A DNA stretch of 10,225 bases. Origin: Escherichia coli (GTDB lineage Bacteria; Pseudomonadota; Gammaproteobacteria; Enterobacterales; Enterobacteriaceae). The notes beneath the pieces are model-generated. The model saw nothing but the letters and a program-made list of their open reading frames with translations. It made no database searches and had not been told where the DNA came from. The number at the start of each line of letters is the position of its first letter. The stretch's first letter is position 1. Positions 1 through 10,225 of this stretch are shown here, one piece after another. A program made the position numbers and the translations under genes. The stretch lies in the NCBI RefSeq assembly GCF_003334255.1, contig NZ_QOWU01000085.1; one strand, 5' to 3'.

Positions 1-148
1 GAAAAACGAGTATTTTTAGTCATCCTGTTTACCTCTTTCTCAGGGAGTTTAGTCTCCAGGATTTCCGGGGCGGTTCAGACCAACTAAGGCCATATGCGTT
101 TCCACGCATACCTTTCAACTAGCTATTCACTATTGGAAATCATAAGAA

Positions 149-445
149 ATGACACAAACAAGTTACAGCAAACTATCCCAGCGTGACGTTGATCGCGCAG
201 AAACAGATTTACTCATCAACCTGTCAGCTCTGACGCAAAGGGGACTGGCAAAGATGATTGGCTGCCATGAATCGAAGGTCAGTCGTACCGACTGGCGATA
301 CATCGCGGCGATTTTATGCGCGTTCCAGATGGCATCTGATATCAGTCCGATCAGCCGGGCTTTCCAGCATGCCATTAACGTTCATGCAAATAAAAAACGT
401 CCGGTTGGGGCCGGACGTTCTGAGCAAATCCTGATGAATATCTGA
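149..445 (+). CDS. cII: CII-like transcriptional activator (lambda cII family)
   Basis: 98 aa, about the length of lambda CII. The C-terminus ANKKRPVGAGRSEQILMNI closely parallels what I recall of lambda CII (TNKKRPAATERSEQIQMEF), and the central SKVSRTDW segment parallels CII's DNA-binding region (SQISRWKRDW). It sits directly upstream of the replication genes, as in lambda. Confidence 0.8.
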   Translation: MTQTSYSKLSQRDVDRAETDLLINLSALTQRGLAKMIGCHESKVSRTDWRYIAAILCAFQMASDISPISRAFQHAINVHANKKRPVGAGRSEQILMNI

Positions 446-508
446 TATTCAGGCAGGGCATGGAGCAATACACGGGAATAATTCTGCCACATCTGGAAGA
501 ATTTCGCC

Positions 509-578
509 AGCAACAACACCAACCGCAGCAGCCTGAAGCCGATTGGGTTAACCCGGGAGATACCGGGACCGTCTGCGG
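509..578. repeat. Diverged partial copy of an internal segment of the downstream replication gene (matches 1258..1350)
   Basis: By-eye alignment: agcaacaacaccaaccgcagcagcctgaagccgatt...gggttaacccgggagataccgggaccgtctgcgg versus 1258..1350. The downstream copy has an extra 23 nt bounded by a 10-bp direct repeat gaagccgatt. The upstream copy lies in a 41-codon ORF (460..585). Confidence 0.6.
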
Positions 579-608
579 TATGGAGTAAATCTTGTATGCG
601 AGGGGACT

Positions 609-1691
609 ATGCGTAATTACGCAACAATTTCACCTCAGTTCTGGTTAGGCGATACAGGGCGAAAACTAAGGAAGTCTGGTCCGGAATGTATGGTAGTGGC
701 GTTGTATATGATGACCTCGCCTCATTCCAATATGCTGGGCCTTTATTACCTGCCTGTTTTGTACATTGCTCACGAAACCGGACTTGCTCCTGAAGGGGCT
801 TCTAAGGGGCTTCAAATGGCTTGCGAGGCTGGTTTTTGCAGCTATGACCATGATTCTGAGGTTGTATGGGTGCATGAAATGGCAGCATGGCAGGTTGGTG
901 AATCGCTGAAACCTGGCGATAACCGTTGTGCTGGGGTAAGAAATGAATATTCCGCGTTGCTGGAAAATCCTTTTTTATCATCCTTTTATGATAGATATAA
1001 GGATGATTTCCACCTGGATGTCAGACGTGAATCATGTCGGAAAATTGAAGCCCCTTCAGAGCCCCTTTCAAGCCAAGAACAGGAACAGGAACAGGAACAG
1101 GAAAGGGATAAAACCCTTCTGGTCCATGGCGAAAAAATCGCCACGGACCCACAGGGGGATTTTTGTCCTGTTCTGACTGAACGTCCAGGACCAGATGGCA
1201 CGACACCGGAAGCAGATTCCGGGCGTTGTGTGCAGCAGGTGCTGATCGTCGAACCGGAGCAACAACGCCAACCGCAGCAGCCTGAAGCCGATTCCGCGAT
1301 GAGCGGGAAGCCGATTGGGTTAACCCGGGCGATGCCGGGACCGTCTGCGGGACGAGTTGATTATCCTGACGTGTTCGAACGGGTCTGGCGTGAATATCCG
1401 CATCGGGCAGGGTCAAACCCGAAGAAATCCGCGTTCAATGCCTGGAGGGCCAGATTACGCGAAGGGGTGTCACCGGATGTCGTGCTGGATGGCGTGAGGC
1501 GTTACGCAAGATACCTGGAGGCTACCGGGAAAGCGGGAACTGAATTTGTTCAGCAGGCATCGACGTTTTTTGGCCCGAACAGGAATTTCGAAAATCCGTG
1601 GTCGCTGCCGAAGGCTGGCGCAGTCAGCCTGCGTTGCGTGAATCACATTTCTGAACCGGACACCGAAATTCCGCCGGGTTTCAGGGGGTAA
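609..1691 (+). CDS. Phage replication initiation protein (O-like functional analogue; resembles the so-called replication protein 15 type of lambdoid prophages)
   Basis: 360 aa with SD GAGGGG 4-5 nt before the ATG. It follows cII and is immediately followed by a DnaC-like loader gene. It contains an internal AT-rich segment with inverted and tandem repeats (origin-like) and an acidic (QE)n linker between two domains. The family assignment is from memory only. Confidence 0.6.
   Translation: MRNYATISPQFWLGDTGRKLRKSGPECMVVALYMMTSPHSNMLGLYYLPVLYIAHETGLAPEGASKGLQMACEAGFCSYDHDSEVVWVHEMAAWQVGESLKPGDNRCAGVRNEYSALLENPFLSSFYDRYKDDFHLDVRRESCRKIEAPSEPLSSQEQEQEQEQERDKTLLVHGEKIATDPQGDFCPVLTERPGPDGTTPEADSGRCVQQVLIVEPEQQRQPQQPEADSAMSGKPIGLTRAMPGPSAGRVDYPDVFERVWREYPHRAGSNPKKSAFNAWRARLREGVSPDVVLDGVRRYARYLEATGKAGTEFVQQASTFFGPNRNFENPWSLPKAGAVSLRCVNHISEPDTEIPPGFRG
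977..1007. repeat. Perfect 9-bp inverted repeat (atcatcctt / aaggatgat) with 13-nt AT-rich loop, inside the replication gene
   Basis: Read directly: atcatcctt-ttatgatagatat-aaggatgat, in an AT-rich stretch (about 960..1010) flanked by short direct repeats tcctttt(tt)at. Confidence 0.7.
1077..1106. repeat. Hexanucleotide tandem repeat (GAACAG)x4 plus one degenerate unit, in frame within the replication gene
   Basis: gaacag gaacag gaacag gaacag gaaagg, translated as the QEQEQEQE linker of the 360-aa protein. Confidence 0.9.
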
Positions 1692-1697
1692 TCAGCC

Positions 1698-2438
1698 ATG
1701 AAAAACATTTCGACAGGAGGGATTCTTGAACGGGTGCGCCGTCTGGCACCACCGCACGTGGCAGCACCGTTCCGGACGACCGACGAATGGCGGGAATGGC
1801 AACTGGCTGAGGGCCGGAAGCGCAGCGAGGAAGTTAACCGCCAGAATCACCAGACGCGGGTTGAAAAAATCCTGAATCGTTCGGGCATCCAGCCGCTTCA
1901 CAGGAAGTGCTCATTCGGGAACTACCGGGTGCAGAACGACGGTCAGCGCCATGCTCTGAGCCAGGCGAAATCCATTGTCGATGAATTGATGACCGGTTAT
2001 ACAAACTTCGTGTTCAGCGGGAATCCGGGAACCGGAAAAAATCATCTGGCGGCGGCTGTGGGTAATCGTCTGCTGAAGGCCGGTAAATCCGTGATAGTGG
2101 TCACCGTGGCGGATGTGATGAGCGCGTTACATGCCAGCTATGACGACGGACTGTCAGGGGAAAAATTTTTGCGTGAACTGTGCGAAGTGGACCTCCTGGT
2201 TCTTGACGAAATTGGCATCCAGCGTGAGACGAAAAACGAGCAGGTGGTACTGCACCAGATTGTTGACCGCCGGACGGCATCACTGCGCAGTGTCGGGATG
2301 CTGACAAACCTGAATCATGCCGCAATGAGCACGCTTCTTGGTGAGAGGATTATGGACCGGATGACCATGAACGGTGGTCGTTGGGTGAATTTTAACTGGG
2401 AGAGCTGGCGGTCAAACGTTGGACGTCAGGGTATGTGA
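1698..2438 (+). CDS. DnaC-like replicative helicase loader (AAA+ ATPase, IstB/DnaC family)
   Basis: 246 aa with Walker A GNPGTGKNHLAAA and Walker B LLVLDEIG. The start is 7 nt after the stop of the initiator gene, with SD AGGGGG upstream. This is the classic position of the lambda P analogue in phi80/Rac-type replication modules. Confidence 0.85.
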   Translation: MKNISTGGILERVRRLAPPHVAAPFRTTDEWREWQLAEGRKRSEEVNRQNHQTRVEKILNRSGIQPLHRKCSFGNYRVQNDGQRHALSQAKSIVDELMTGYTNFVFSGNPGTGKNHLAAAVGNRLLKAGKSVIVVTVADVMSALHASYDDGLSGEKFLRELCEVDLLVLDEIGIQRETKNEQVVLHQIVDRRTASLRSVGMLTNLNHAAMSTLLGERIMDRMTMNGGRWVNFNWESWRSNVGRQGM

Positions 2439-2463
2439 GAATTTTTGACGAGGTAAATTTTCG

Positions 2464-3234
2464 ATGGAAACCGTATTGCATGCACTGAAAGCGATGGGAA
2501 AAGCCAATTCTGTTGAACTGGCGGCGCGGCTTGATATCAGCCGTGAAGAAGTTCTCAACGAACTGTGGGAGCTCAAAAAAAATGGCGTTGTTGATAAAAC
2601 GGGTCACACCTGGTTTCTGGCTGTCGAAGGTGAAGCCGGGGTAACCGAAGAGCGGCCAGTAAAATCTGAAACACAGGATATGCTGACCGAAGAGGTCGCT
2701 CCAAAAGTTAGCGCTGACATGATGATTGAGTTTATCTCTCAGGAGGGGGCTAAAACCTGTGAAGAAATAGCGGGTAAGTTCGGAGTTACCACTCGCAAGG
2801 TTGCTTCCACGCTGGCGGTGGTAACCGCAACGGGGCGGCTGGCACGCGTTAATCAGAACGGTAAATTTCGTTACTGCATGCCGGGGGGTAATTTACCAGC
2901 AGATCCGAAAACCGCGCCGGTAACGGAAAATGATGGTAAGGCCTTTCCTCAGCCAGCAGGTGCTGCGTTACCAGTCCGGGAAGCCGCAACACAGGAAGAA
3001 ATTAAAACAGAAACTGTGGCGGACATTGTGCAGCCGTTGCCATCGTTTACCGAAACGCAAGCAGATGAGCTGATTTTTCCGTCCCTTCGCAGGGCAAACC
3101 TGGCGCTGCGCAGGGCGAAAAGTGATGTTCAGAAGTGGGAGCGAGTCTGCGCCGCGCTGCGGGAGCTGAATAAACACCGGGATATTTTCAGTTCGATTGC
3201 TGATATTCCGGTTCATTCACCGACAACAAAGTGA
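2464..3234 (+). CDS. Hypothetical phage protein with two winged-helix-like N-terminal modules
   Basis: 256 aa, ATG with GAGG 10 nt upstream. Two similar HTH-like segments (about residues 1-55 and 85-135) are followed by a low-complexity linker and a basic helical C-terminus. No family recognised. Confidence 0.6.
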   Translation: METVLHALKAMGKANSVELAARLDISREEVLNELWELKKNGVVDKTGHTWFLAVEGEAGVTEERPVKSETQDMLTEEVAPKVSADMMIEFISQEGAKTCEEIAGKFGVTTRKVASTLAVVTATGRLARVNQNGKFRYCMPGGNLPADPKTAPVTENDGKAFPQPAGAALPVREAATQEEIKTETVADIVQPLPSFTETQADELIFPSLRRANLALRRAKSDVQKWERVCAALRELNKHRDIFSSIADIPVHSPTTK

Positions 3235-3249
3235 TCTCCGGAGGTGCTT

Positions 3250-3681
3250 ATGACAAGAGCATTTACACCAGAAGAGCGGGAAAAAATTAAGGGGCTGATC
3301 GTGGAGTTCGTACGCCTTAACGGACGAGGCACGATTCGGCAGTTATCGGATGAAATTGGTGTCAGTCATGCGTCTGTCGGTCGTTTATGCATGGAGCTGG
3401 CCGCCAGTGGTGATGTTTACAATTCCGGTTACGGAGTATTCCCGTCTGAACAGGCTCGTAAGGACTGGCAAAATGCCCGCAAAAAACTCTCAAGGGCAAA
3501 GTCGAAGAAACCGGTTGTCGTTGATCCAGACCTTATCCGGGCATTACCAGATGGGGAAATACGGCGCTACGACAGACGCTACAACACAATTTGTCGCGAG
3601 TGCCGTAACAGCGAAACGATGCAGCGTGTGCTGGCATTCTGGCGAGGGAGTGCAGAGGGATTGATGTTCTCCCCGTCGTGA
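3250..3681 (+). CDS. Hypothetical HTH-containing phage protein
   Basis: 143 aa from ATG 3250 with SD GGAGG 5 nt upstream (the track ORF starts 6 nt earlier at a GTG). The N-terminus IRQLSDEIGVSHASVGRLCMEL is HTH-like; the C-terminus has a CxxC pair. Confidence 0.55.
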   Translation: MTRAFTPEEREKIKGLIVEFVRLNGRGTIRQLSDEIGVSHASVGRLCMELAASGDVYNSGYGVFPSEQARKDWQNARKKLSRAKSKKPVVVDPDLIRALPDGEIRRYDRRYNTICRECRNSETMQRVLAFWRGSAEGLMFSPS

Positions 3682-3690
3682 ATGACGGGG
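3671..3690. terminator. Hairpin between convergent genes (ccccgtc-gtgaat-gacgggg), overlapping the stop codon at 3679..3681
   Basis: 7-bp perfect stem with 6-nt loop, read directly. There is no clear U-tract on either strand, so its terminator function is uncertain. Confidence 0.35.
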
Positions 3691-3713
3691 GCTTACGTGT
3701 TCAGAAAAGTGAT

Positions 3714-4388
3714 TCATATAGAGGCTGAATCTGATCTTTTTTGTTCACGTCTGGCTTCCACCATTGCAGGCAGAGTGAAGGCGTAGACTAAAAACATTTC
3801 GGTAAAACTCAGGATCTGGCTTGCCTCAATTGGTGTGAAAACTTCATCTGTATGAACTGCTTTATTGGCATCAATTCGTACAATATGAGCCCATTCCTTC
3901 ATCTGTTCAGTGATCAGGCCTTTTTTGTAAATCATCTGAATACGTTGCGACAGCGATTCTTTTCCTGCTTCATCGCCGAGCAGTTTTTTCGTGGAGATAT
4001 CGAGGACTCTGCGACAAAGAATAACCACTGTGTCGTACCGCCTCCTCTGTAAATCCTCTTTTGCCTCAACAAAAGTACGGTCTGCAACCGGGGGCGTATA
4101 TTCTGGTGCGGTAATTTTTTTGACCACAGGATAGATCTTGCGGAAACGGTACTGGCTATTTCCTGAAATCAGAATATCGAGGTCTTTTTTCTGGCTTTCC
4201 GCCATGGGACCGTGATAGTGGTCTGATGGGATTTCAACAATAGCAACACCTCCTCGATGACAACTTCTGCATACAAAAGCGACGTTAAAAAAAGGTGTTT
4301 TTTCAATTTGTTTTTCGGCAAATGCCTCAATAACAGCTCGCTCTTTTAAACAGTGCGGGCATGTGATATCAAAGGAGACTAAACCCAT
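3714..4388 (-). CDS. Zinc-ribbon / DUF4145-like protein, candidate single-gene defence (abortive-infection-type) factor
   Basis: 225 aa from the ATG at 4388, with SD GAGGAA 5 nt upstream on the minus strand; the track ORF extends to 4460 without any SD. The N-terminus has CPHC...CRSC (4-Cys ribbon). The C-terminal ~100 aa (RRVLDISTKKLLGDEAG...IVRIDANKAVHTDEVFTPIEASQILSFTEMFLVYAF) matches my recollection of the DUF4145 consensus (R..GN.aaH followed by EA...L). It is on the opposite strand to flanking phage genes and in visibly lower-GC sequence. Confidence 0.7.
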   Translation of the reverse strand: MGLVSFDITCPHCLKERAVIEAFAEKQIEKTPFFNVAFVCRSCHRGGVAIVEIPSDHYHGPMAESQKKDLDILISGNSQYRFRKIYPVVKKITAPEYTPPVADRTFVEAKEDLQRRRYDTVVILCRRVLDISTKKLLGDEAGKESLSQRIQMIYKKGLITEQMKEWAHIVRIDANKAVHTDEVFTPIEASQILSFTEMFLVYAFTLPAMVEARREQKRSDSASI

Positions 4389-4632
4389 GGATATTCCTCG
4401 CGAAATTAAAGAAATTAACGAAATCATTGAGGTTACTGATCGCCCCGAGTTTACCCTCATGCGTCGTTATGAAACAGGAACCGACGAACAAAAATACATC
4501 ATGGTTGCAGCATTGGCTGTGATGGCGATAGAAAGGGAGCGAAGGGAAAAGGACGTAATGGTTATTCCTGAGAGAAATGATTCACCGGATTTGAGATGGC
4601 AGGAGCCGGAGTGGGATGTGGTAATCCGGTGA
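4387..4632 (+). CDS. Small acidic hypothetical protein (81 aa), divergent from the DUF4145-like gene
   Basis: ATG at 4387 with SD AGGAG 9 nt upstream, ending at a GC hairpin shared with the convergent antitoxin gene. Its start codon overlaps the minus-strand start inside the palindrome CCATGG. No family recognised; it could be spurious. Confidence 0.35.
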   Translation: MDIPREIKEINEIIEVTDRPEFTLMRRYETGTDEQKYIMVAALAVMAIERERREKDVMVIPERNDSPDLRWQEPEWDVVIR

Positions 4633-4653
4633 TTGATATTTCTCTGGGGTAAA

Positions 4654-4674
4654 GCGCCGCCAGAATGACGGCGC
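4654..4674. terminator. GC-rich hairpin (gcgccg-ccagaatga-cggcgc) between convergent genes
   Basis: 6-bp GC stem read directly. On the minus strand it is followed by TTTACCCC, so it may terminate the toxin-antitoxin transcript; the U-tract is weak. Confidence 0.3.
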
Positions 4675-4686
4675 GGTAGTGGAGAG

Positions 4687-4995
4687 TTAAACGAAGCGGA
4701 TCTGGAGTTTTTTCCCTGTAGCACGGGCGAATTTTTTCAGTGTGGCAAATGATGGGCCGCTTGTACCTGATGCAAGATTGCTTTCCATTCTGGTTATCGC
4801 AGTCGCTTTTGTTCCCATACGTTCAGCAACTTCAGCCTGGGTTAAGCCAGCTTCTTTTCGTGCTGCCAGCATTTCATCAAGTAGTGCGAATTCATCGGCG
4901 ATGGCGTCGTATTCTGCTTTTACTGCGGGGTTAGACAACATTTTTTCTACCATATCATCGTGTGTCATGGTAGGTGGGGTACGTTTACCAGTCAT
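4687..4995 (-). CDS. HTH (XRE-like) antitoxin of a type II toxin-antitoxin pair
   Basis: 102 aa with a strong SD AAGGAGG 6 nt upstream on the minus strand. The HTH GLTQAEVAERMGTKATAITRMES is preceded by a helical N-terminal region. Its start overlaps the 3' end of the upstream toxin gene by 11 nt. Confidence 0.8.
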   Translation of the reverse strand: MTGKRTPPTMTHDDMVEKMLSNPAVKAEYDAIADEFALLDEMLAARKEAGLTQAEVAERMGTKATAITRMESNLASGTSGPSFATLKKFARATGKKLQIRFV

Positions 4996-5326
4996 GCTTA
5001 ACCTCCTTCATTCTGGTTTCAGCTTTTCTAAGCTCGGCAGGTGGAGTTTTTTGCGTTTTCTTTACAAAGCTATGCAACATAATGATTCGCTTTCCTTTTA
5101 GCGTGCAGTAAAAAACACGCCCTATGCCTTCCGAGCCCTTAAGGCGGATTTCAAACAAACCGTCGCCAAATGCCTCTGTATGCGGGGAACCAAGATTAGC
5201 TCCGTAAATACGCATTTTCTCCGTGTACCGAATGTACCGGGCTTGTAAGGTCTCAGGAAGAGAAAGGATCTCAGCTTCAACCTCGTCACTGTAGTATTCG
5301 ATAATGTAGTTCATGAGAGTAAACAT
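4985..5326 (-). CDS. RelE/ParE-superfamily toxin (Gp49/HigB-like) of a type II toxin-antitoxin pair
   Basis: 113 aa from the ATG at 5326. The C-terminal half GRVFYCTLKGKRIIMLHSFVKKTQKTPPAELRKAETRMKEV fits the Gp49/HigB-type pattern. The toxin-first gene order and 11-nt overlap with the antitoxin are typical of HigBA-type modules. The GTG-initiated 42-codon extension in the track ORF is not expected for this family. Confidence 0.8.
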   Translation of the reverse strand: MFTLMNYIIEYYSDEVEAEILSLPETLQARYIRYTEKMRIYGANLGSPHTEAFGDGLFEIRLKGSEGIGRVFYCTLKGKRIIMLHSFVKKTQKTPPAELRKAETRMKEVKHDW

Positions 5327-5338
5327 AACAAATTTGTT
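5327..5338. promoter_or_regulatory. Perfect 12-bp palindrome AACAAATTTGTT immediately upstream of the toxin start; candidate operator
   Basis: Read directly. It lies between a -10-like TATATA (minus strand) and the toxin ATG. Type II antitoxins typically autoregulate through palindromic operators. Confidence 0.4.
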
Positions 5339-5356
5339 ATATACATTCAAGGTATG

Positions 5357-5386
5357 TTGACGACAACACATATCCGGGATTATATT
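5357..5386 (+). promoter_or_regulatory. Sigma70-like promoter (TTGACG-N17-TTATAT) on the + strand, back-to-back with the minus-strand toxin promoter
   Basis: ttgacg at 5357..5362 and ttatat/tatatt at 5380..5386, read directly. On the minus strand TTGTCG-N17-TATATA sits just upstream of the toxin ATG. Confidence 0.4.
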
Positions 5387-5448
5387 CTTCGCACGCCAGC
5401 AAAATCTGGCGTCGGGATTAGGAACCCCGGATAGAAACCGCGACAGAG

Positions 5449-5470
5449 ACACGCCGCGAGCGTGTTTTTT
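5449..5470 (+). terminator. Intrinsic terminator (acacgc-cgcga-gcgtgt followed by TTTTT)
   Basis: 6-bp stem, 5-nt loop and T5 tract, read directly. It lies about 60-80 nt downstream of the + strand promoter, which would delimit a short transcript. Confidence 0.55.
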
Positions 5471-5633
5471 ATTGTCGTATGCACACGCACATCTGAATTA
5501 TGGTGGGGCGTATAGGGGAGCTGAAAAGCTCGCCGGTTGGTTTCCCGGTAGTTCCTAACCCTGTACGTCTCGCCACCCGATGATTAGGAACCTGACGGTG
5601 GTGATAGTTTAGAAACCACTCGAGGGCGTCATT

Positions 5634-6305
5634 ATGACAACTCAAGTTTCTGTTGAAACACTCTCCACGATTACTTACAAGCAGATCCCCGTTATCACTA
5701 CCGAACTTTTGGCGCACCTTTACGGCACAGAAGCTATTCGTATTCGCCAGAATCACCACGAAAACAAAGGTCGTTTCATTGAGGAAAAACACTTCTTCAA
5801 ACTTGAAGGTGAAACTTTACGTGAGTTCAAGCACAGAGTAGCTTTTAACTACTCTGTGAAAATTGCCCGTAACGTTCGCTCCCTCATCCTATGGACAGAA
5901 CGCGGCGCAGCCCGTCATGCAAAAATGCTCGAAACCGATCGGGCGTGGGAAGTGTTCGAAAAACTGGAAGACTGCTATTTCAGCCAGGGAAAAACAACAC
6001 AAACCGAACAGCAGTCGCAGATTCAGCCACAATTCACAGCCGAGGAAATCATCCTCCTTTGCTACATGCAACTCTGGATGGAAAAAGCCCAGGACCTTAA
6101 CAAGCAGCTGTACCCCATAATGAAAGAGCTGAACTCCTCATACACGAACAAGCTGTATGACATTGCGTTTGAGACTATCTACATGGTGACGAAGAACAGA
6201 GACGCGCTACTAAGGGAGGTAACACGTCTCGACATGTCAAGTTCCGTTATCCAGCGGGCCATGCCAATGCTGAAAAGCCTGCGGGCAAGACAATTTGAAT
6301 TCTGA
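5634..6305 (+). CDS. Roi-like DNA-binding protein (ORF6N-type N-terminal domain, antirepressor-like)
   Basis: 223 aa with SD GAGGG 7 nt upstream. The N-terminal region (TELLAHLYGTEAIRIRQNHHENKGRFIEEKHFFKLEGE...LILWTERGAARHAKMLETDRAWEVFEKL) resembles the ORF6N/Roi-type domain as I recall it. It sits just before ninB, as roi-like genes do in HK022-type nin regions. Confidence 0.55.
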   Translation: MTTQVSVETLSTITYKQIPVITTELLAHLYGTEAIRIRQNHHENKGRFIEEKHFFKLEGETLREFKHRVAFNYSVKIARNVRSLILWTERGAARHAKMLETDRAWEVFEKLEDCYFSQGKTTQTEQQSQIQPQFTAEEIILLCYMQLWMEKAQDLNKQLYPIMKELNSSYTNKLYDIAFETIYMVTKNRDALLREVTRLDMSSSVIQRAMPMLKSLRARQFEF

Positions 6306-6311
6306 AACTAA

Positions 6312-6333
6312 AGGAGCTTCGGCTCCTTTTTTG
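6312..6333 (+). terminator. Intrinsic terminator (aggagc-ttcg-gctcct followed by TTTTTTG)
   Basis: Perfect 6-bp stem, tetraloop and T6 tract, beginning 7 nt after the roi-like stop codon. This is the position of the nin-region terminators (tR2-like) in lambda. Confidence 0.7.
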
Positions 6334-6359
6334 TTGGGAAAATCCAGTGAGAGGGAATA

Positions 6360-6770
6360 ATGAACCAGACTATCTTCCTCCGAAGTAAGCAGCAGCAACA
6401 ATTCGCCATTAACGCCATCCTTGCAACAACTCTCGATAAAGACAAACCCGTTACGATCCGCATCACCGATTACAAGCGGAATCTCGATCAAAATGCCAAA
6501 TTTCACGCGATGGTCGCTGATATCTCCCGACAGGTTCAGTGGTGCGGCAGATGGCTAAAACCAGAACAGTGGAAAGTTTTGTTAATCAGCGGTCATGCCG
6601 TGGCGACAAAACAGGAAGCTGATGTTTTGCCAGGTCTTGAAGGTGAATACGTCAATATCCGCGAAAGCAGTGCGCAAATGAGCGTGAAGCGTATGGCAAG
6701 CCTGATTGAGTACACAACATCCTGGGCCGTGGATCAGGGTGTCAGATTTACCGACAGGAGGTACGAATGA
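6360..6770 (+). CDS. ninB: NinB (Orf family recombination mediator)
   Basis: 136 aa. The motifs [32 protein letters not shown] parallel lambda NinB (SLDQNRKLWACLGDVSRQVEWHGRWLDAESWK) as I remember it. SD GAGGG upstream. Confidence 0.8.
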
Positions 6771-6958
6771 GACGACAGCGACGAAGCATCACCGATATCG
6801 TCTGTGAAAACTGCAATTACCTTCCAACCAAACGCTCCCGAAATAAACCCAGGCCAGTCCCCAAAGAATCTGATGTTAAAACCTTCAACTATACGGCTCA
6901 CCTGTGGGATATCCGGTGGCTAAGGCGTCGAGCAAGATTTAATTGTCACTCCGGATAG
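6767..6958 (+). CDS. ninE: NinE-like small protein
   Basis: 63 aa, start overlapping the ninB stop (ATGA), so translationally coupled. It is basic with a CxxC pair. The position between ninB and the ybcO-like gene matches DLP12/lambda-type nin order. Assignment is by position and size plus weak recollection. Confidence 0.5.
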
Positions 6959-6981
6959 CCTACTGCATGAGGAATAAGATG

Positions 6982-7272
6982 ATGACAAACCTACGCAAAG
7001 AAGCGCGCGGCAGAGAATGCCAGGTACGGATTTATGGCGTATGCAATGGCAACCCTGAAACTACAGTTCTGGCGCATTACCGAATGGCTGGAATTTGCGG
7101 AACGGGAACAAAGCCAGATGATCTGTTGGCTGCATGGGCCTGTAGTGACTGCCATAATGAAATCGATCGCCGTACTCGCATTCTCGACAACAACGACGCC
7201 AGACTTTACCACCTGGAAGGCGTGATCAGGACGCTGGCGATATTGCTGAAGGAGGGGAAGATTAAGTCATGA
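6982..7272 (+). CDS. YbcO-like protein (DUF1364-type putative nuclease)
   Basis: 96 aa from the ATG at 6982, with GAGGAA 6 nt upstream; the track ORF starts earlier at 6943. RKEARGRECQVRIYGVCNGNPETTVLAHYR and the Cys/His cluster resemble the E. coli DLP12 YbcO as I recall it. It sits immediately upstream of rusA, as in DLP12. Confidence 0.6.
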   Translation: MTNLRKEARGRECQVRIYGVCNGNPETTVLAHYRMAGICGTGTKPDDLLAAWACSDCHNEIDRRTRILDNNDARLYHLEGVIRTLAILLKEGKIKS

Positions 7273-7631
7273 ATGAATATGAGTTTGTGCTTCCCTGGCC
7301 GCCGACGGTGAATACCTACTGGCGAAGACGGGGAAGCCAGTACTACATCAGCGATAAAGGCCAGAAATACCGAAAAGACGTACAGCAAATCATCCGGCAA
7401 CTCAGATTAGACATTTTCACTAAATCACGACTTCGCATCACAATTATTGCTGAACCACCAGATTCCCGCCGTCGCGACCTCGATAACATCCTGAAAGGTT
7501 TACTCGACTCTCTTATCCACGCCGGATTTGCGGAAGACGACGTGCAATTCGATGACATTCGCGTAATTCGCGGCGTGAAAGTGCCTGGCGGTAGAGTGGG
7601 GATAAAAATCACCGAACTGGAGAACATATGA
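7269..7631 (+). CDS. rusA: RusA Holliday-junction resolvase
   Basis: 120 aa. The N-terminus LPWPP and the RRRDLDN motif match RusA, which is also 120 aa in E. coli. Its start overlaps the upstream stop (ATGA). Confidence 0.85.
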   Translation: MNEYEFVLPWPPTVNTYWRRRGSQYYISDKGQKYRKDVQQIIRQLRLDIFTKSRLRITIIAEPPDSRRRDLDNILKGLLDSLIHAGFAEDDVQFDDIRVIRGVKVPGGRVGIKITELENI

Positions 7632-7828
7632 ACGCCACAATTCAAACAATACCGGAATTGCTTATCCAGGCACGAGGCAATATGACTGAAGTTTCACGAA
7701 AACTGAACTGTAATCGTGCTACGGTCAGAAAATATGTCGGTGATAAAGAAGGCAAACGGCACGCCGTCGTCAACGGTGTCCTTATGGTTCATCGTGGATG
7801 GGATAAGGGGAAAGCTACTGATGCGTGA
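7628..7828 (+). CDS. ninH: NinH-like small DNA-binding protein
   Basis: 66 aa. TIPELLIQARGNMTEVSRKLNCNRATVRKYVGDKEGKRHAVVNGVLMVHRGW parallels lambda NinH as I recall it (Fis-like HTH). Its start overlaps the rusA stop (ATGA). Confidence 0.65.
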   Translation: MNATIQTIPELLIQARGNMTEVSRKLNCNRATVRKYVGDKEGKRHAVVNGVLMVHRGWDKGKATDA

Positions 7829-8063
7829 TATTCAGCAGGTGCCTGAACGCATGGCTTTATTCAGGTCGTCTGGAAAAGCGCATGAGCAGCGTAATAGCGG
7901 AGTTCATGGCGAAGAGTATATGAACAGATTATTCGAATGCTATATGAGACTGAAGCACGGAGATCGCTATGACCTGACACGTGATGCTGACGGTTTCTAC
8001 TGCCGTGAAGTTGTGAAACGAATGTTTGAAGTGTGGTGTCATTGTAAAGGATGGGGGCTGTGA
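7821..8063 (+). CDS. Hypothetical small protein (80 aa) between ninH and the Q-like gene
   Basis: The ATG at 7821 overlaps the ninH stop (ATGCGTGA), with GGGGA upstream. The track ORF begins at 7716 but would then overlap ninH by about 110 nt. Cys/His-rich C-terminus (CREVVKRMFEVWCHCKGW). No family recognised. Confidence 0.5.
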   Translation: MRDIQQVPERMALFRSSGKAHEQRNSGVHGEEYMNRLFECYMRLKHGDRYDLTRDADGFYCREVVKRMFEVWCHCKGWGL

Positions 8064-8677
8064 TGCGGCTAACCCCAGTATTCGGCATGGTTAACTTTAT
8101 TAATGATGCTCATTTCCGCCGCATATGGAGGCATCCGAAGAAAATCATTAACTCTCGTCAGAAAGCATGGGTTCACTACATGCTACAGGTATGGGGAAAT
8201 GTTAACGCTGGTGATGATTCTCCTTGTGGTGCAATTAACGTTATTGGGCGACTGATGATTCGCAGTCAGTGGAGCGATGACAAAGCTAAGCAGATTGAGT
8301 CTGTTGTCATGCGTCTGTATGAAGAAGACGGACTACGTGGAGATGAACTCCATCAGAAAGCCCGAGAACTGGTCATCCCTCAGTCATCGGCAGGTAATAT
8401 CATTGCTCTCGCCAAAGAATCCGATGATGCTGCTTTCGTTGAACGTGTGATGGTTGAGACCTTTCATCGTGAAAGCCCTGTCCGTGATGTAGCTATTAGG
8501 CGATATTGCAATCGCGACAGCACGCAAGATATCGCCAGGATGATTTCTCAGATAACAGGAGTTGATATTCAGTATTGCCGGAGGCGGGTCGTGTGGTGCG
8601 AGAGGGTCCTTGATTCAGAAATGTTTTATGCAATGAAGCGAGAATTGGAGAAAGAACTTCTAGTGATTGCTGGATGA
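8063..8677 (+). CDS. Putative late-gene regulator (Q antiterminator-like by position), family uncertain
   Basis: 204 aa from the ATG at 8063, overlapping the upstream stop (TGATG) with a G-rich SD. It is the last gene before a promoter-plus-terminator region and the late-gene start, where Q lies in lambdoid phages. The sequence does not resemble lambda Q as I recall it, so the call is positional. Confidence 0.4.
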   Translation: MRLTPVFGMVNFINDAHFRRIWRHPKKIINSRQKAWVHYMLQVWGNVNAGDDSPCGAINVIGRLMIRSQWSDDKAKQIESVVMRLYEEDGLRGDELHQKARELVIPQSSAGNIIALAKESDDAAFVERVMVETFHRESPVRDVAIRRYCNRDSTQDIARMISQITGVDIQYCRRRVVWCERVLDSEMFYAMKRELEKELLVIAG

Positions 8678-8701
8678 TGCAAAATATTTTTTGTAAATGC
8701 G

Positions 8702-8730
8702 TTGCTTTCGAGAAATGAAAGTAGTATGTT
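8702..8730 (+). promoter_or_regulatory. Candidate late promoter (pR'-like): TTGCTT-N17-TATGTT
   Basis: Hexamers read directly, about 25 nt downstream of the Q-like stop. A terminator lies roughly 110-130 nt further downstream, as in the lambda pR'-tR' arrangement. Confidence 0.3.
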
Positions 8731-8837
8731 TTGTGTATGCTCGGAGCAAAAGCGCACTGAGAAGCGAAAGAGAAATCCTGATTTACCTCGGTCGTCGATA
8801 ATATTTAGGATCGGCATACTGGCTAGATTAGGTAAAG

Positions 8838-8864
8838 GCCTCGGCAGAAATGTCGGGGCTTTTT
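8838..8864 (+). terminator. Intrinsic terminator (tR'-like): gcctcggc-agaaat-gtcggggc followed by TTTTT
   Basis: 8-bp stem including two G-U pairs, 6-nt loop and T5 tract, read directly. Confidence 0.55.
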
Positions 8865-8996
8865 GTTTGCACAACAGGTAAGAGCATTGAACCCGCAGAC
8901 CTCGTGGAATTGGTGAAAGGTGTGCGCAGTGCTCTTATCGTTGTGGTGAAGCTCAATGGCGAGCTAGCAGACAGGCGACTGTGAAAATACTAGTCA

Positions 8997-9068
8997 TGTA
9001 GCGGATCGCCGCGCGTATTGTAATCGGCAGCGCACCGATGGGAGCTGGTTCGATTCCGGCCGCCACAA
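8997..9068 (+). tRNA. tRNA-like element, possibly a degenerate tRNA or tRNA remnant (anticodon-position triplet GCG)
   Basis: It has a canonical T-arm (gctgg-TTCGATT-ccggc), a 7-nt acceptor 3' strand cgccaca, and an anticodon-like arm (atcgg-cagcgca-ccgat). But the acceptor 5' strand tgtagcg gives one A-C mismatch, there is no convincing D-arm, position 33 is A, position 37 is C, and no CCA is encoded. A second acceptor/D-arm-like fragment lies at 8942..8964. Confidence 0.3.
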
Positions 9069-9383
9069 TCCAAACTGAGCCGTAGCCTCTGGGTGTCCTG
9101 AATTCATCAGTGATAGTTACGCTGCGGCCTTCTACATACGATTTTTGTGAAAAGCGGGTGGCAAGAGGCTGCGAAATTTTTAAATACCTCACAATTCCAC
9201 AGCTTGATGATTGTCTGGCTGCCGGAGAATTTGTTAAAAATTGCATCGCGTGGTGAATCCCCCTCAGCGGCGGGGCATCTGGCAAAGTGTATGATCCAGC
9301 GAACATGCAAATTCAGTAGCCAGGCTGAATTTACCGGGAGGCACCTGGCACCATGCGACAGACAGAAATTAGGCTATACTTCA

Positions 9384-9406
9384 GCCCCTCTCCGGAGGGG
9401 CTTTTC
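9384..9406 (+). terminator. Intrinsic terminator of unit 1 (gcccctc-tccg-gaggggc followed by TTTTC)
   Basis: Perfect 7-bp GC-rich stem, tccg tetraloop and T tract, read directly. Confidence 0.75.
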
Positions 9407-9596
9407 TGTGCAGGATGTGTCACAGTTTCCTGAATTCTGAGTACTGTCCTGTTACTCAGGGTGCTATATTTTCTGACGTGATGAAAGTCTGCCGGAAGGC
9501 GGAACGTATCGGAAATGACCCAGTAGAGAAAACGTTGACTCAGATACCGATGCTGAGTTACCGGGAAACCGGCATCACATGACCGCTATCCTTCCA

Positions 9597-9619
9597 GGCT
9601 CGCTCCGGCGGGCCTTTTT
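9597..9619 (+). terminator. Intrinsic terminator of unit 2 (ggctcgc-tccg-gcgggcc followed by TTTTT)
   Basis: 7-bp stem with one G-U pair, the same tccg loop as the other two units, and a T5 tract. Confidence 0.7.
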
Positions 9620-9866
9620 ACTGCAGAAAACAGTTTTCCCGTAAAATGCCACGTTACTCACAATTCAGGCTGGCGATTATTGTCTGGCCAGCGGGAAGTT
9701 TGTTAAAAAAATATGGCATGGTGAATCCCCCTGTGCGGAGGGGCATATCAGCGACAGGTGTTTGGTCACACCCCTTATCCTTTCTGGTGCGGGTTCAGGT
9801 GCTGATACTGAACTCACCGGGAGGCACCCTGCACCATGCATGAACGGTACATAGCGCTACTCTCCA

Positions 9867-9890
9867 GCCCCTCTCCGGAGGGGCTTTCTT
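9867..9890 (+). terminator. Intrinsic terminator of unit 3 (gcccctc-tccg-gaggggc followed by TTTCTT)
   Basis: Stem and loop identical to the unit 1 terminator, read directly. Confidence 0.75.
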
Positions 9891-9897
9891 GTTGGAT

Positions 9898-9926
9898 AAA
9901 AAAAAGCCCGCGCCGGGAAGCGCGGG
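9898..9926 (-). terminator. Minus-strand intrinsic terminator (cccgcgc-cgggaa-gcgcggg preceded by an A8 run on the + strand)
   Basis: 7-bp GC stem read directly. On the minus strand the hairpin is followed by a T8 tract. With the unit 3 terminator it forms a back-to-back bidirectional stop. Confidence 0.6.
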
Positions 9927-10127
9927 TGGCAAGGAATAAACAACAAAACGTGAAGTGATCAATTTTCAGCTGGCGAATAATACCTGATAGTAATCACTCT
10001 GCGCAACTGTATGGTCTTTTTCGTATTGCGGGCTGTAGTCATCCTCCTGTTTCTGAACCCTTGTCCATGACTGACGTCAGCCCGCACCTTATCTTGATTG
10101 CATACACTATCCCTGCCGGGAGGAATA

Positions 10128-10225
10128 ATGGCATTTAAACACTATGACGTGGTCAGGGCATCATCGCCGTCAGACCTCGCAGGAAAACTGACGCAAAAAC
10201 TGAAGGAAGGCTGGCAACCCTATGG
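10128..10225 (+). CDS. 5' end of a phage gene running off the window (hypothetical; possibly the small conserved protein often found upstream of lambdoid lysis genes)
   Basis: ATG at 10128 with SD GGGAGGA 6 nt upstream. The reading frame MAFKHYDVVRASSPSDLAGKLTQKLKEGWQPY stays open to the window end. The family suggestion is a vague recollection only. Confidence 0.5.
   Translation, partial: MAFKHYDVVRASSPSDLAGKLTQKLKEGWQPY

Follow-up and report, generated by a model that had tools for sequence, protein, structure and literature searches.

The window, by which we mean the whole stretch of 10,225 nucleotides analyzed here (Escherichia coli contig NZ_QOWU01000085.1, assembly GCF_003334255.1), opens with a short piece of an insertion sequence and continues into the cII region of a lambdoid prophage. 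Bases 1 to 77 belong to an IS629/IS1203 element (IS3 family) in minus-strand orientation and are 100% identical to its left end. Phage DNA begins at base 78, and a four-way alignment placed the break exactly between bases 77 and 78. The features of this part of the window are listed below, where "type A" denotes the leader module found in the window.

1 to 23, minus strand: first 23 nt of IS629 orfA ("12 kD protein"), with the ATG at 23-21 and the translation MTKNTRF; the annotated CDS start in the VT1-Sakai record (L002 1623) corresponds to window base 23.
32 to 40, minus strand: orfA Shine-Dalgarno region, AGAAAGAGG on this strand, 8 nt upstream of the orfA ATG and identical in the IS629 of VT1-Sakai.
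44 to 57, no strand assigned: 4-bp inverted repeat ggag-tttagt-ctcc in the orfA 5' UTR that overlaps the IS629 IRL at its inner edge.
53 to 77, minus strand: IS629 IRL, 25 bp, TGAACCGCCCCGGAAATCCTGGAGA on this strand; it corresponds to L002 1653-1677, annotated as "inverted repeat from left end of IS629", and the alignment agrees.
78 to 92, plus strand: beginning of the phage DNA, gaccaactaaggcca, forming the distal part of the stretch that separates boxB from the tR1 hairpin; identical to PhiR5_2 and kept in all type-A relatives.
93 to 110, plus strand: tR1-type RNA hairpin tatgcgt-ttcc-acgcata, with a 7-bp stem and a 4-nt loop, identified by folding, homology, and pairing counts.
111 to 134, plus strand: C-rich, G-poor tract, the putative tR1 release zone, assigned by composition and location, with release as its presumed function.
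135 to 148, plus strand: cII ribosome-binding region, GGA at 135-137, 11 nt before the ATG, by comparison with lambda, where the spacing is the same.
139 to 171, minus strand: pRE, the CII-activated leftward promoter, with the -10 element TATGAT at 144-139 and the CII site TTGC-N6-TTGT at 171-158, transferred from the mEp234 annotation.
149 to 445, plus strand: cII, 98 aa, an open reading frame annotated as a CII family regulator, with Pfam PF05269 on an identical protein.

We are highly confident that bases 31 to 130 consist of two known things joined between bases 77 and 78, the left end of IS629 and the distal part of a nutR-tR1-cII leader. The first-pass annotation had read these bases as possible nutR- and tR1-like elements on the basis of three motifs upstream of cII. 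All three are present and their sequences were given correctly. Inspection of the sequence places cctctttct at 32-40, followed after a gap of 3 nt by ggag/tttagt/ctcc at 44-47/48-53/54-57. The second hairpin, atgcgt/ttcc/acgcat, is found at 94-99/100-103/104-109, some 2 nt away from where it had been put (about 96..111), and its stem grows to 7 bp at 93-110. As to position, the proposal held for tR1 but not for nutR.

The assignment of the first 77 bases to IS629 follows from several comparisons. The record of VT1-Sakai (AP000400, L002) carries an annotated IS629 on the minus strand that is base-for-base identical to window 1-77. When bases 1-150 were compared to phage records by BLAST, window 1-79 showed 100% matches to IS629 sites in dozens of Stx phage and prophage records, and a megablast of the same bases against 5,426 complete E. 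coli genomes returned around 24,500 matching places, annotated as IS3 or IS1203 family transposase. The terminal inverted repeat ends with 5'-TG and is identical to the reference IRL of AP000400, and both the orfA start and its ribosome-binding site are at the reference distance from the end of the element. At the level of sequence, the supposed boxA is the reverse complement of the orfA Shine-Dalgarno, and the motif pair is IS sequence taken on the wrong strand. An extension of cro into this region, suggested by frames 1 and 3 being open at the window edge, was rejected because bases 1-77 are IS629; the overlapping coding sequence is that of orfA, on the opposite strand (23-1). A sigma-70 promoter scan of window 1-700 and of a full IS629 copy in the same orientation revealed no outward promoter. 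IS629 was dropped as a promoter source for cII because no promoter-like site was found in the element in this orientation. The sole terminator-like match inside IS629, also in this orientation, is at chance level.

The first motif pair, i.e., the boxA-like stretch and the 44-57 hairpin, is at chance level. The boxA-like stretch (32-40) has three mismatches in nine positions to CGCTCTTTA, a score shared by two other 9-mers of bases 1-150. Compared with CGCUCUU(U)A, it (ACCTCTTTC) departs at 3 of 9 positions, including the G. A single site in the whole window, at 4339, matches boxA with at most one mismatch, which is again chance level. Perfect 4-bp stems with loops of 3-8 nt occur 2.9 times per 100 nt in the window, versus 2.3 in shuffled sequences. 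The 44-57 hairpin itself (-7.4 kcal/mol; z = -1.9 in a 25-nt context) was equaled by 8 of 200 shuffles, and the stretch 31-77 folds no better than shuffles (z = -0.18 on the plus strand and -0.47 on the minus strand). Its 4-bp stem and hexaloop UUUAGU contrast with the 5-bp stem and the GNRA-like penta- or tetraloop (GAAAA, GACAA, GAAA) required of a boxB, which the arginine-rich motif of the cognate N recognizes.

Bases 32-57 could still be viewed as a weak but functional nutR for the N protein of this prophage, since they sit just upstream of cII and show a pyrimidine-rich motif and then a small hairpin within 3 nt. We regard this as extremely improbable, given that the sequence is 100% IS629, that the boxA mismatches (3/9) come with chance-level folding, that a 4-bp stem with a UUUAGU loop replaces the 5-bp stem and GA(C)AA(A) loop of the family boxB, and that the 32-57 sequence is missing at this position in every relative examined. 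The comparison suggested in the first-pass annotation, with the nutR regions of related prophages carrying the same type of N, found these motifs in none of about 100 relatives (0 of 80 IMG/VR loci, 10 genome contigs, and 13 phage records), which were chosen as loci with a CII at least 78% identical, contigs with an identical CII, and phage records, respectively. Bases 31-58, claimed as a nutR-like boxA and boxB, are thus the left end of IS629, and the relatives carry a different and genuine nutR at this place. The same annotation had named two observations that would speak against it: the lack of a conserved boxA/boxB here in related phages, which is what we found for the nutR half, and an extension of cro over the region, which does not occur.

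The genuine nutR of the relatives is composed of boxA CGCTCTTT, a spacer hairpin GGAC-ATTC-GTCC, and boxB TCGCTGA(C)AAAGCGA, which is of the P22/H-19B type. This boxB is present upstream of cII in all 55 type-A loci (55/55). In PhiR5_2, the cro stop is followed by boxA CGCTCTTTT, GGAC-ATTC-GTCC, boxB TCGCTGACAAAGCGA, and 14 nt (GTCCCAAGATATCT), after which the sequence runs into GACCAAC..., the first base of which is window base 78. From this base (L001 2504 onward), PhiR5_2 is identical to window 78-170. The end of boxB is 14 nt upstream of the insertion point, and the real nutR is therefore outside the window. The GenBank record of mEp234 annotates CGCTCTTTT as nutR boxA and TCGCTGACAAAGCGA as nutR boxB, and the nutL boxB of the family is GCGCTGACAAAGCGC. 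The linked N protein starts with MTRRTQFKGNSRSRRRERLK, which matches the arginine-rich motif 12-RSRRRER-18 of the N protein of H-19B as well as the residues mutated in that protein (R3, S11, R15, and R18) (PMC3526286). The nutR of H-19B, with its two hairpins, has been studied experimentally (PMC3526286). In the relatives, lambda-like pL/oL operators and a lambda-like cI/Cro accompany the H-19B-type N and the P22-like boxB (L084 1173-2060), so that this interval is a mosaic whose immunity region and N/nut specificity are of different origins. A KilA-N/BstA_C gene lies between N and cI in the relatives (L084).

The second half of the proposal, that tR1 lies before cII, was borne out, since the 93-110 hairpin is homologous to hairpins annotated as tR1 in phage records. 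In epsilon34, the sequence that aligns with window 91-112 (GGTTTATGCGCCAGTGCGCATAGCC) bears the annotation "putative transcriptional terminator tR1", and the record of phage 21 has a hairpin at the equivalent position annotated as "terminator tR1"; these GenBank labels are the depositors' annotation, qualified as "putative" in epsilon34. The position is that of tR1: in the intact relatives, boxB lies 29 nt upstream of the start of the hairpin, and the cII ATG 38 nt downstream of its end. It is intact in all 58 type-A sequences (58/58). Its predicted stability (-7.1 kcal/mol; z = -7.57) was reached by none of 200 shuffles, and perfect 7-bp stems are expected in shuffles only around 0.03 times per 100 nt. 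In lambda, the corresponding hairpin (38305-38324) is directly after the annotated rutB (38282-38301), and window 78-92 aligns roughly with the end of lambda rutB. No Rfam family was found in bases 1-148 at gathering thresholds. The literature consulted on tR1 of lambda and H-19B describes rut sites and termination zones and gives no direct role to the hairpin.

Pairing was counted in an alignment of eight homologous hairpins, those of the window, three type-A variants, lambda, epsilon34, BIS08P22, and ECO95. In these sequences, 96.4% of the alignment cells are paired and two pairs are changed on both sides. One stem pair occurs as U-A, U·G, and C-G, and another as G-C, G·U, and A-U. The observed covariation score was reached by 17 of 500 shuffles, for a sample of eight sequences only, and the covariation is thus supportive, not decisive, for a hairpin in the rightward RNA. 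Three independent G·U/U·G variants pair only in the RNA of the plus strand. This points to a structure of the rightward transcript and disfavors both alternatives, a DNA palindrome and a structure in the leftward pRE RNA. The type-B leaders, which have a nonhomologous hairpin at the same position, show an independent series from U-A to U·G to C-G, with the wobble in L052 and the compensatory change in L058.

The hairpin might also have been kept mainly for something other than termination, such as cII translation or mRNA stability, an effect linked to IHF, or the binding of a protein to a DNA palindrome. Proposals for lambda, cited in PMC5869508, are that tR1 termination and cII translation are both influenced by an IHF site preceding the cII ribosome-binding site, and that stem-loops in the leader could hinder initiation at cII. 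Bases 93-110 are indeed a perfect DNA palindrome, and some minimum free energy folds pair the flanks of the hairpin with nearby sequence. Against this, pairing of the three wobble variants is confined to the rightward RNA, which speaks against a DNA palindrome and a role in the pRE RNA; the hairpin ends 38 nt before the ATG and the GGA ribosome-binding site is not sequestered in the predicted folds; and nonhomologous hairpins, called tR1 by the depositors, occur equally far downstream of boxB in type B, type C, and lambda. We therefore consider a principal role outside termination unlikely. The 93-110 hairpin is a real phage element and very probably the known tR1 terminator hairpin.

Bases 78-148, hairpin included, are only modestly C-rich (18 C versus 10 G). 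In the intact relatives, the hairpin and the C-rich tract are situated around 45-90 nt downstream of the spacer rut. Termination zones are typically 60-90 nt downstream of a rut site (PMC3526286), so that this distance fits the expected zone. The cII start region also holds pRE: in mEp234, whose leader is near-identical to that of the window, pRE is annotated at -10 to +19 of the cII start and the CII site at +10 to +23. The 3' end of cII contains, on the minus strand (394-421), a strong intrinsic-terminator-like hairpin with a T-run (AGAACGTCCGGCCCCAACCGGACGTTTTTTATTT). It is at the position of the terminator of the oop antisense RNA, and the oopRNA of phage 21 is annotated at +243 to +323 of cII.

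Further into the window, the interval between cII and the O-like gene (445-609) has a small ORF of 42 aa (460-588), versus 72 aa in PhiR5_2 and most relatives. BLAST matches to this interval come in two pieces with a 90-bp size difference, and the short form is also found in some contigs (L088 and L089). The O-like replication protein (609-1691) contains a GAACAG hexanucleotide repeat of around four copies (1075-1100), which encodes (EQ)n. Versions of 358, 360, and 362 aa exist in the relatives, which suggests that the length variants result from variation in repeat copy number. In the nin region, Rfam identified an isrK Hfq-binding RNA (5393-5470, plus strand, 69 bits) and a C4 antisense RNA (5496-5580, plus strand, 66 bits) just ahead of a 223-aa ORF (5634-6305) whose RefSeq annotation in relatives is ORF6N domain protein. 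The arrangement looks like a P1/P7-style, c4-type antisense immunity module. Beside these RNAs are two overlapping minus-strand ORFs of 155 and 102 aa (4687-5452), whose layout resembles that of a toxin-antitoxin or small regulatory pair; against RstR-family repressors, the 102-aa ORF gives a weak helix-turn-helix match (E = 1.5e-6) that falls short of the family cutoff. Two tandem copies of the STnc100 sRNA family (9218-9411, 139 bits; 9687-9896, 130 bits; both plus strand) are downstream of a Q-like gene (8051-8677).

The closest relative overall is a prophage in E. coli G1/2, with 99.9% identity over 78-10225 and no interruption between cro and cII. None of the about 100 relatives (80 IMG/VR loci, 10 contigs, and 13 phage records) has an IS at this site, and a look-up of the exact CII protein returned uninterrupted relatives only. 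The 34-nt junction sequence had no match in IMG/VR viral contigs, JGI metagenome contigs, or GTDB species-representative genomes, and no place spanning the junction was found by megablast of bases 1-150 among the 5,426 complete E. coli genomes. The insertion appears to be private to the source of the window, and the junction rests on one sequence. The window starts inside IS629, with only the left end of the element, 77 nt, in view. On the far side of the element, ...GTCCCAAGATATCTGAC(C) would abut the right inverted repeat, with a 3-4 bp duplication of GAC or GACC, and cro and nutR would lie beyond.

An artefact of the assembly, either a contig end at a repeat k-mer or a chimeric join, could also put IS629 next to cII in a prophage whose cro-nutR-cII region is in reality intact. 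The window starts exactly 77 nt inside the IS, which is a common k-mer length of assemblers, and the junction is unique among all collections searched. A k-mer overlap at a contig end would nevertheless still reflect reads that join the IS end to base 78, and the break falls precisely at the IS terminus, as a true insertion predicts. Prophages moreover hold 62% of the mapped O157 copies of IS629, with duplications that are usually 3-4 bp (PMC3271280). An artefact thus seems very improbable to us, and we retain a true insertion of IS629 at this site.

In H-19B and lambda, nutR and the rut site of tR1 overlap, with the Rho footprint on the nut spacer; N at boxB, with Nus factors, suppresses release (PMC3526286; PMC8940904). 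Rho-dependent release was shown for the nutR/tR1 of H-19B as one unit (PMC3526286, PMC1950744). By analogy with lambda and H-19B, Rho would load on the nut/rut region of the intact leader and RNA polymerase would be released around and just after the hairpin, unless modified by N at boxB, the hairpin presumably marking or strengthening the pause and release zone of tR1. In the window there is no contiguous rut upstream of the hairpin, since IS629 replaces the nut/rut region from base 77 leftward. The insertion would thereby split the nutR-tR1 unit, and any surviving nutR would be around 1.3 kb further upstream. Transcripts from pR would have to cross IS629 antisense and untranslated before they reach cII-O-P-Q; since this stretch is untranslated, they would probably be subject to Rho unless the polymerase is N-modified. 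In the other direction, the pRE transcript would enter IS629 orfA in sense after around 65 nt and cross the IS before cro and cI.

IS629 would hence separate cII-O-P-Q from nutR and pR, and pRE from cI. The insertion probably cripples or rewires early rightward expression (cII, the replication genes, and Q) together with repressor establishment, and altered early expression would bear on the inducibility of the prophage. A bolder view, which we find very doubtful, is that IS629 has been wired into the decision circuit of the phage, pRE driving the transposase and cII-O-P-Q depending on N-antiterminated read-through of 1.3 kb of antisense IS. If so, IS629 expression would be coupled to the choice between lysis and lysogeny, and the locus would be a natural test of how far a nut signal can be separated from its terminator. 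All the components are already known, namely IS629, the H-19B/P22-type nutR-tR1 leader, cII, and pRE, and the insertion site alone is new. Lambdoid prophages commonly carry IS629 insertions, and the locus is ordinary. The value of the result is mainly corrective: what looked like a plausible regulatory motif pair is a mobile-element terminus taken on the wrong strand.

CII homologs are linked to at least three leader modules besides the type A of the window, i.e., types B and C and that of lambda. The boxB of type B is CCGCCGACAACGCGG, type C has the boxB of phage 21, and that of lambda is its own. The hairpin differs from module to module and in each case ends 32-39 nt upstream of the cII ATG:

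Type A (window) hairpin: TATGCGT-TTCC-ACGCATA
Lambda hairpin: GTATGCA-TTTATT-TGCATAC
Type B hairpin: CACTCATC-GAAA-GATGAGTG
Type C (phage 21) hairpin: AGCGGCAA...TGCCGC

Lambdoid phages with at least four unrelated nutR modules thus all keep a hairpin some 35-55 nt ahead of cII, in agreement with a conserved tR1 architecture. Two loci (L056 and L069) carry a 14-nt tandem duplication (ATACCTTTCAACTA twice) directly after the tR1 hairpin, around 45 nt upstream of cII, which lengthens the putative release zone.

The tR1 of lambda (rutA-boxB-rutB, hairpin, cII) shares with the type-A leader the order of the elements, the distance from the end of the hairpin to the cII ATG (36-39 nt), the spacing of the GGA ribosome-binding site, and a stem, TATGC/GCATA, that is recognizably homologous with one pair changed on both sides. 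It differs in the hairpin loop, 6 nt versus 4 nt in the window, and in using boxB GCCCUGAAAAAGGGC with its own N, whereas the family has GACAA or GAAAA on a TCGC stem with an H-19B-type N. Older work on lambda attributes a role in termination to its hairpin. The phages of the H-19B/P22 group (mEp234, HK106, Stx2 phage I, and epsilon34) are closer: their segment after boxB is identical or near-identical to window 78-148, hairpin included, and the relatives of the window carry the same H-19B-type N and two-hairpin nutR. The window departs from this group in lacking boxA, the spacer hairpin, and boxB, because the IS intervenes, and in that the Rho-loading and release parts of the terminator are no longer contiguous.

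As for the IS, the copy in VT1-Sakai has the same 25-bp IRL, 5' UTR, orfA Shine-Dalgarno, and start codon. In the window only 77 nt of the element are present, and its place, 14 nt after the nutR boxB and 15 nt before the tR1 hairpin, was found in no other sequence searched. Comparable cases are the classical polar IS insertions in the early right operon of lambda, such as the r32 IS2 near cII, which likewise put an IS between pR/nutR and the replication genes. Insertions of the r32 type are expected to be polar, with the polarity relieved by N-modified polymerase. The present case differs from r32 in that the element is another IS and the host a natural prophage.
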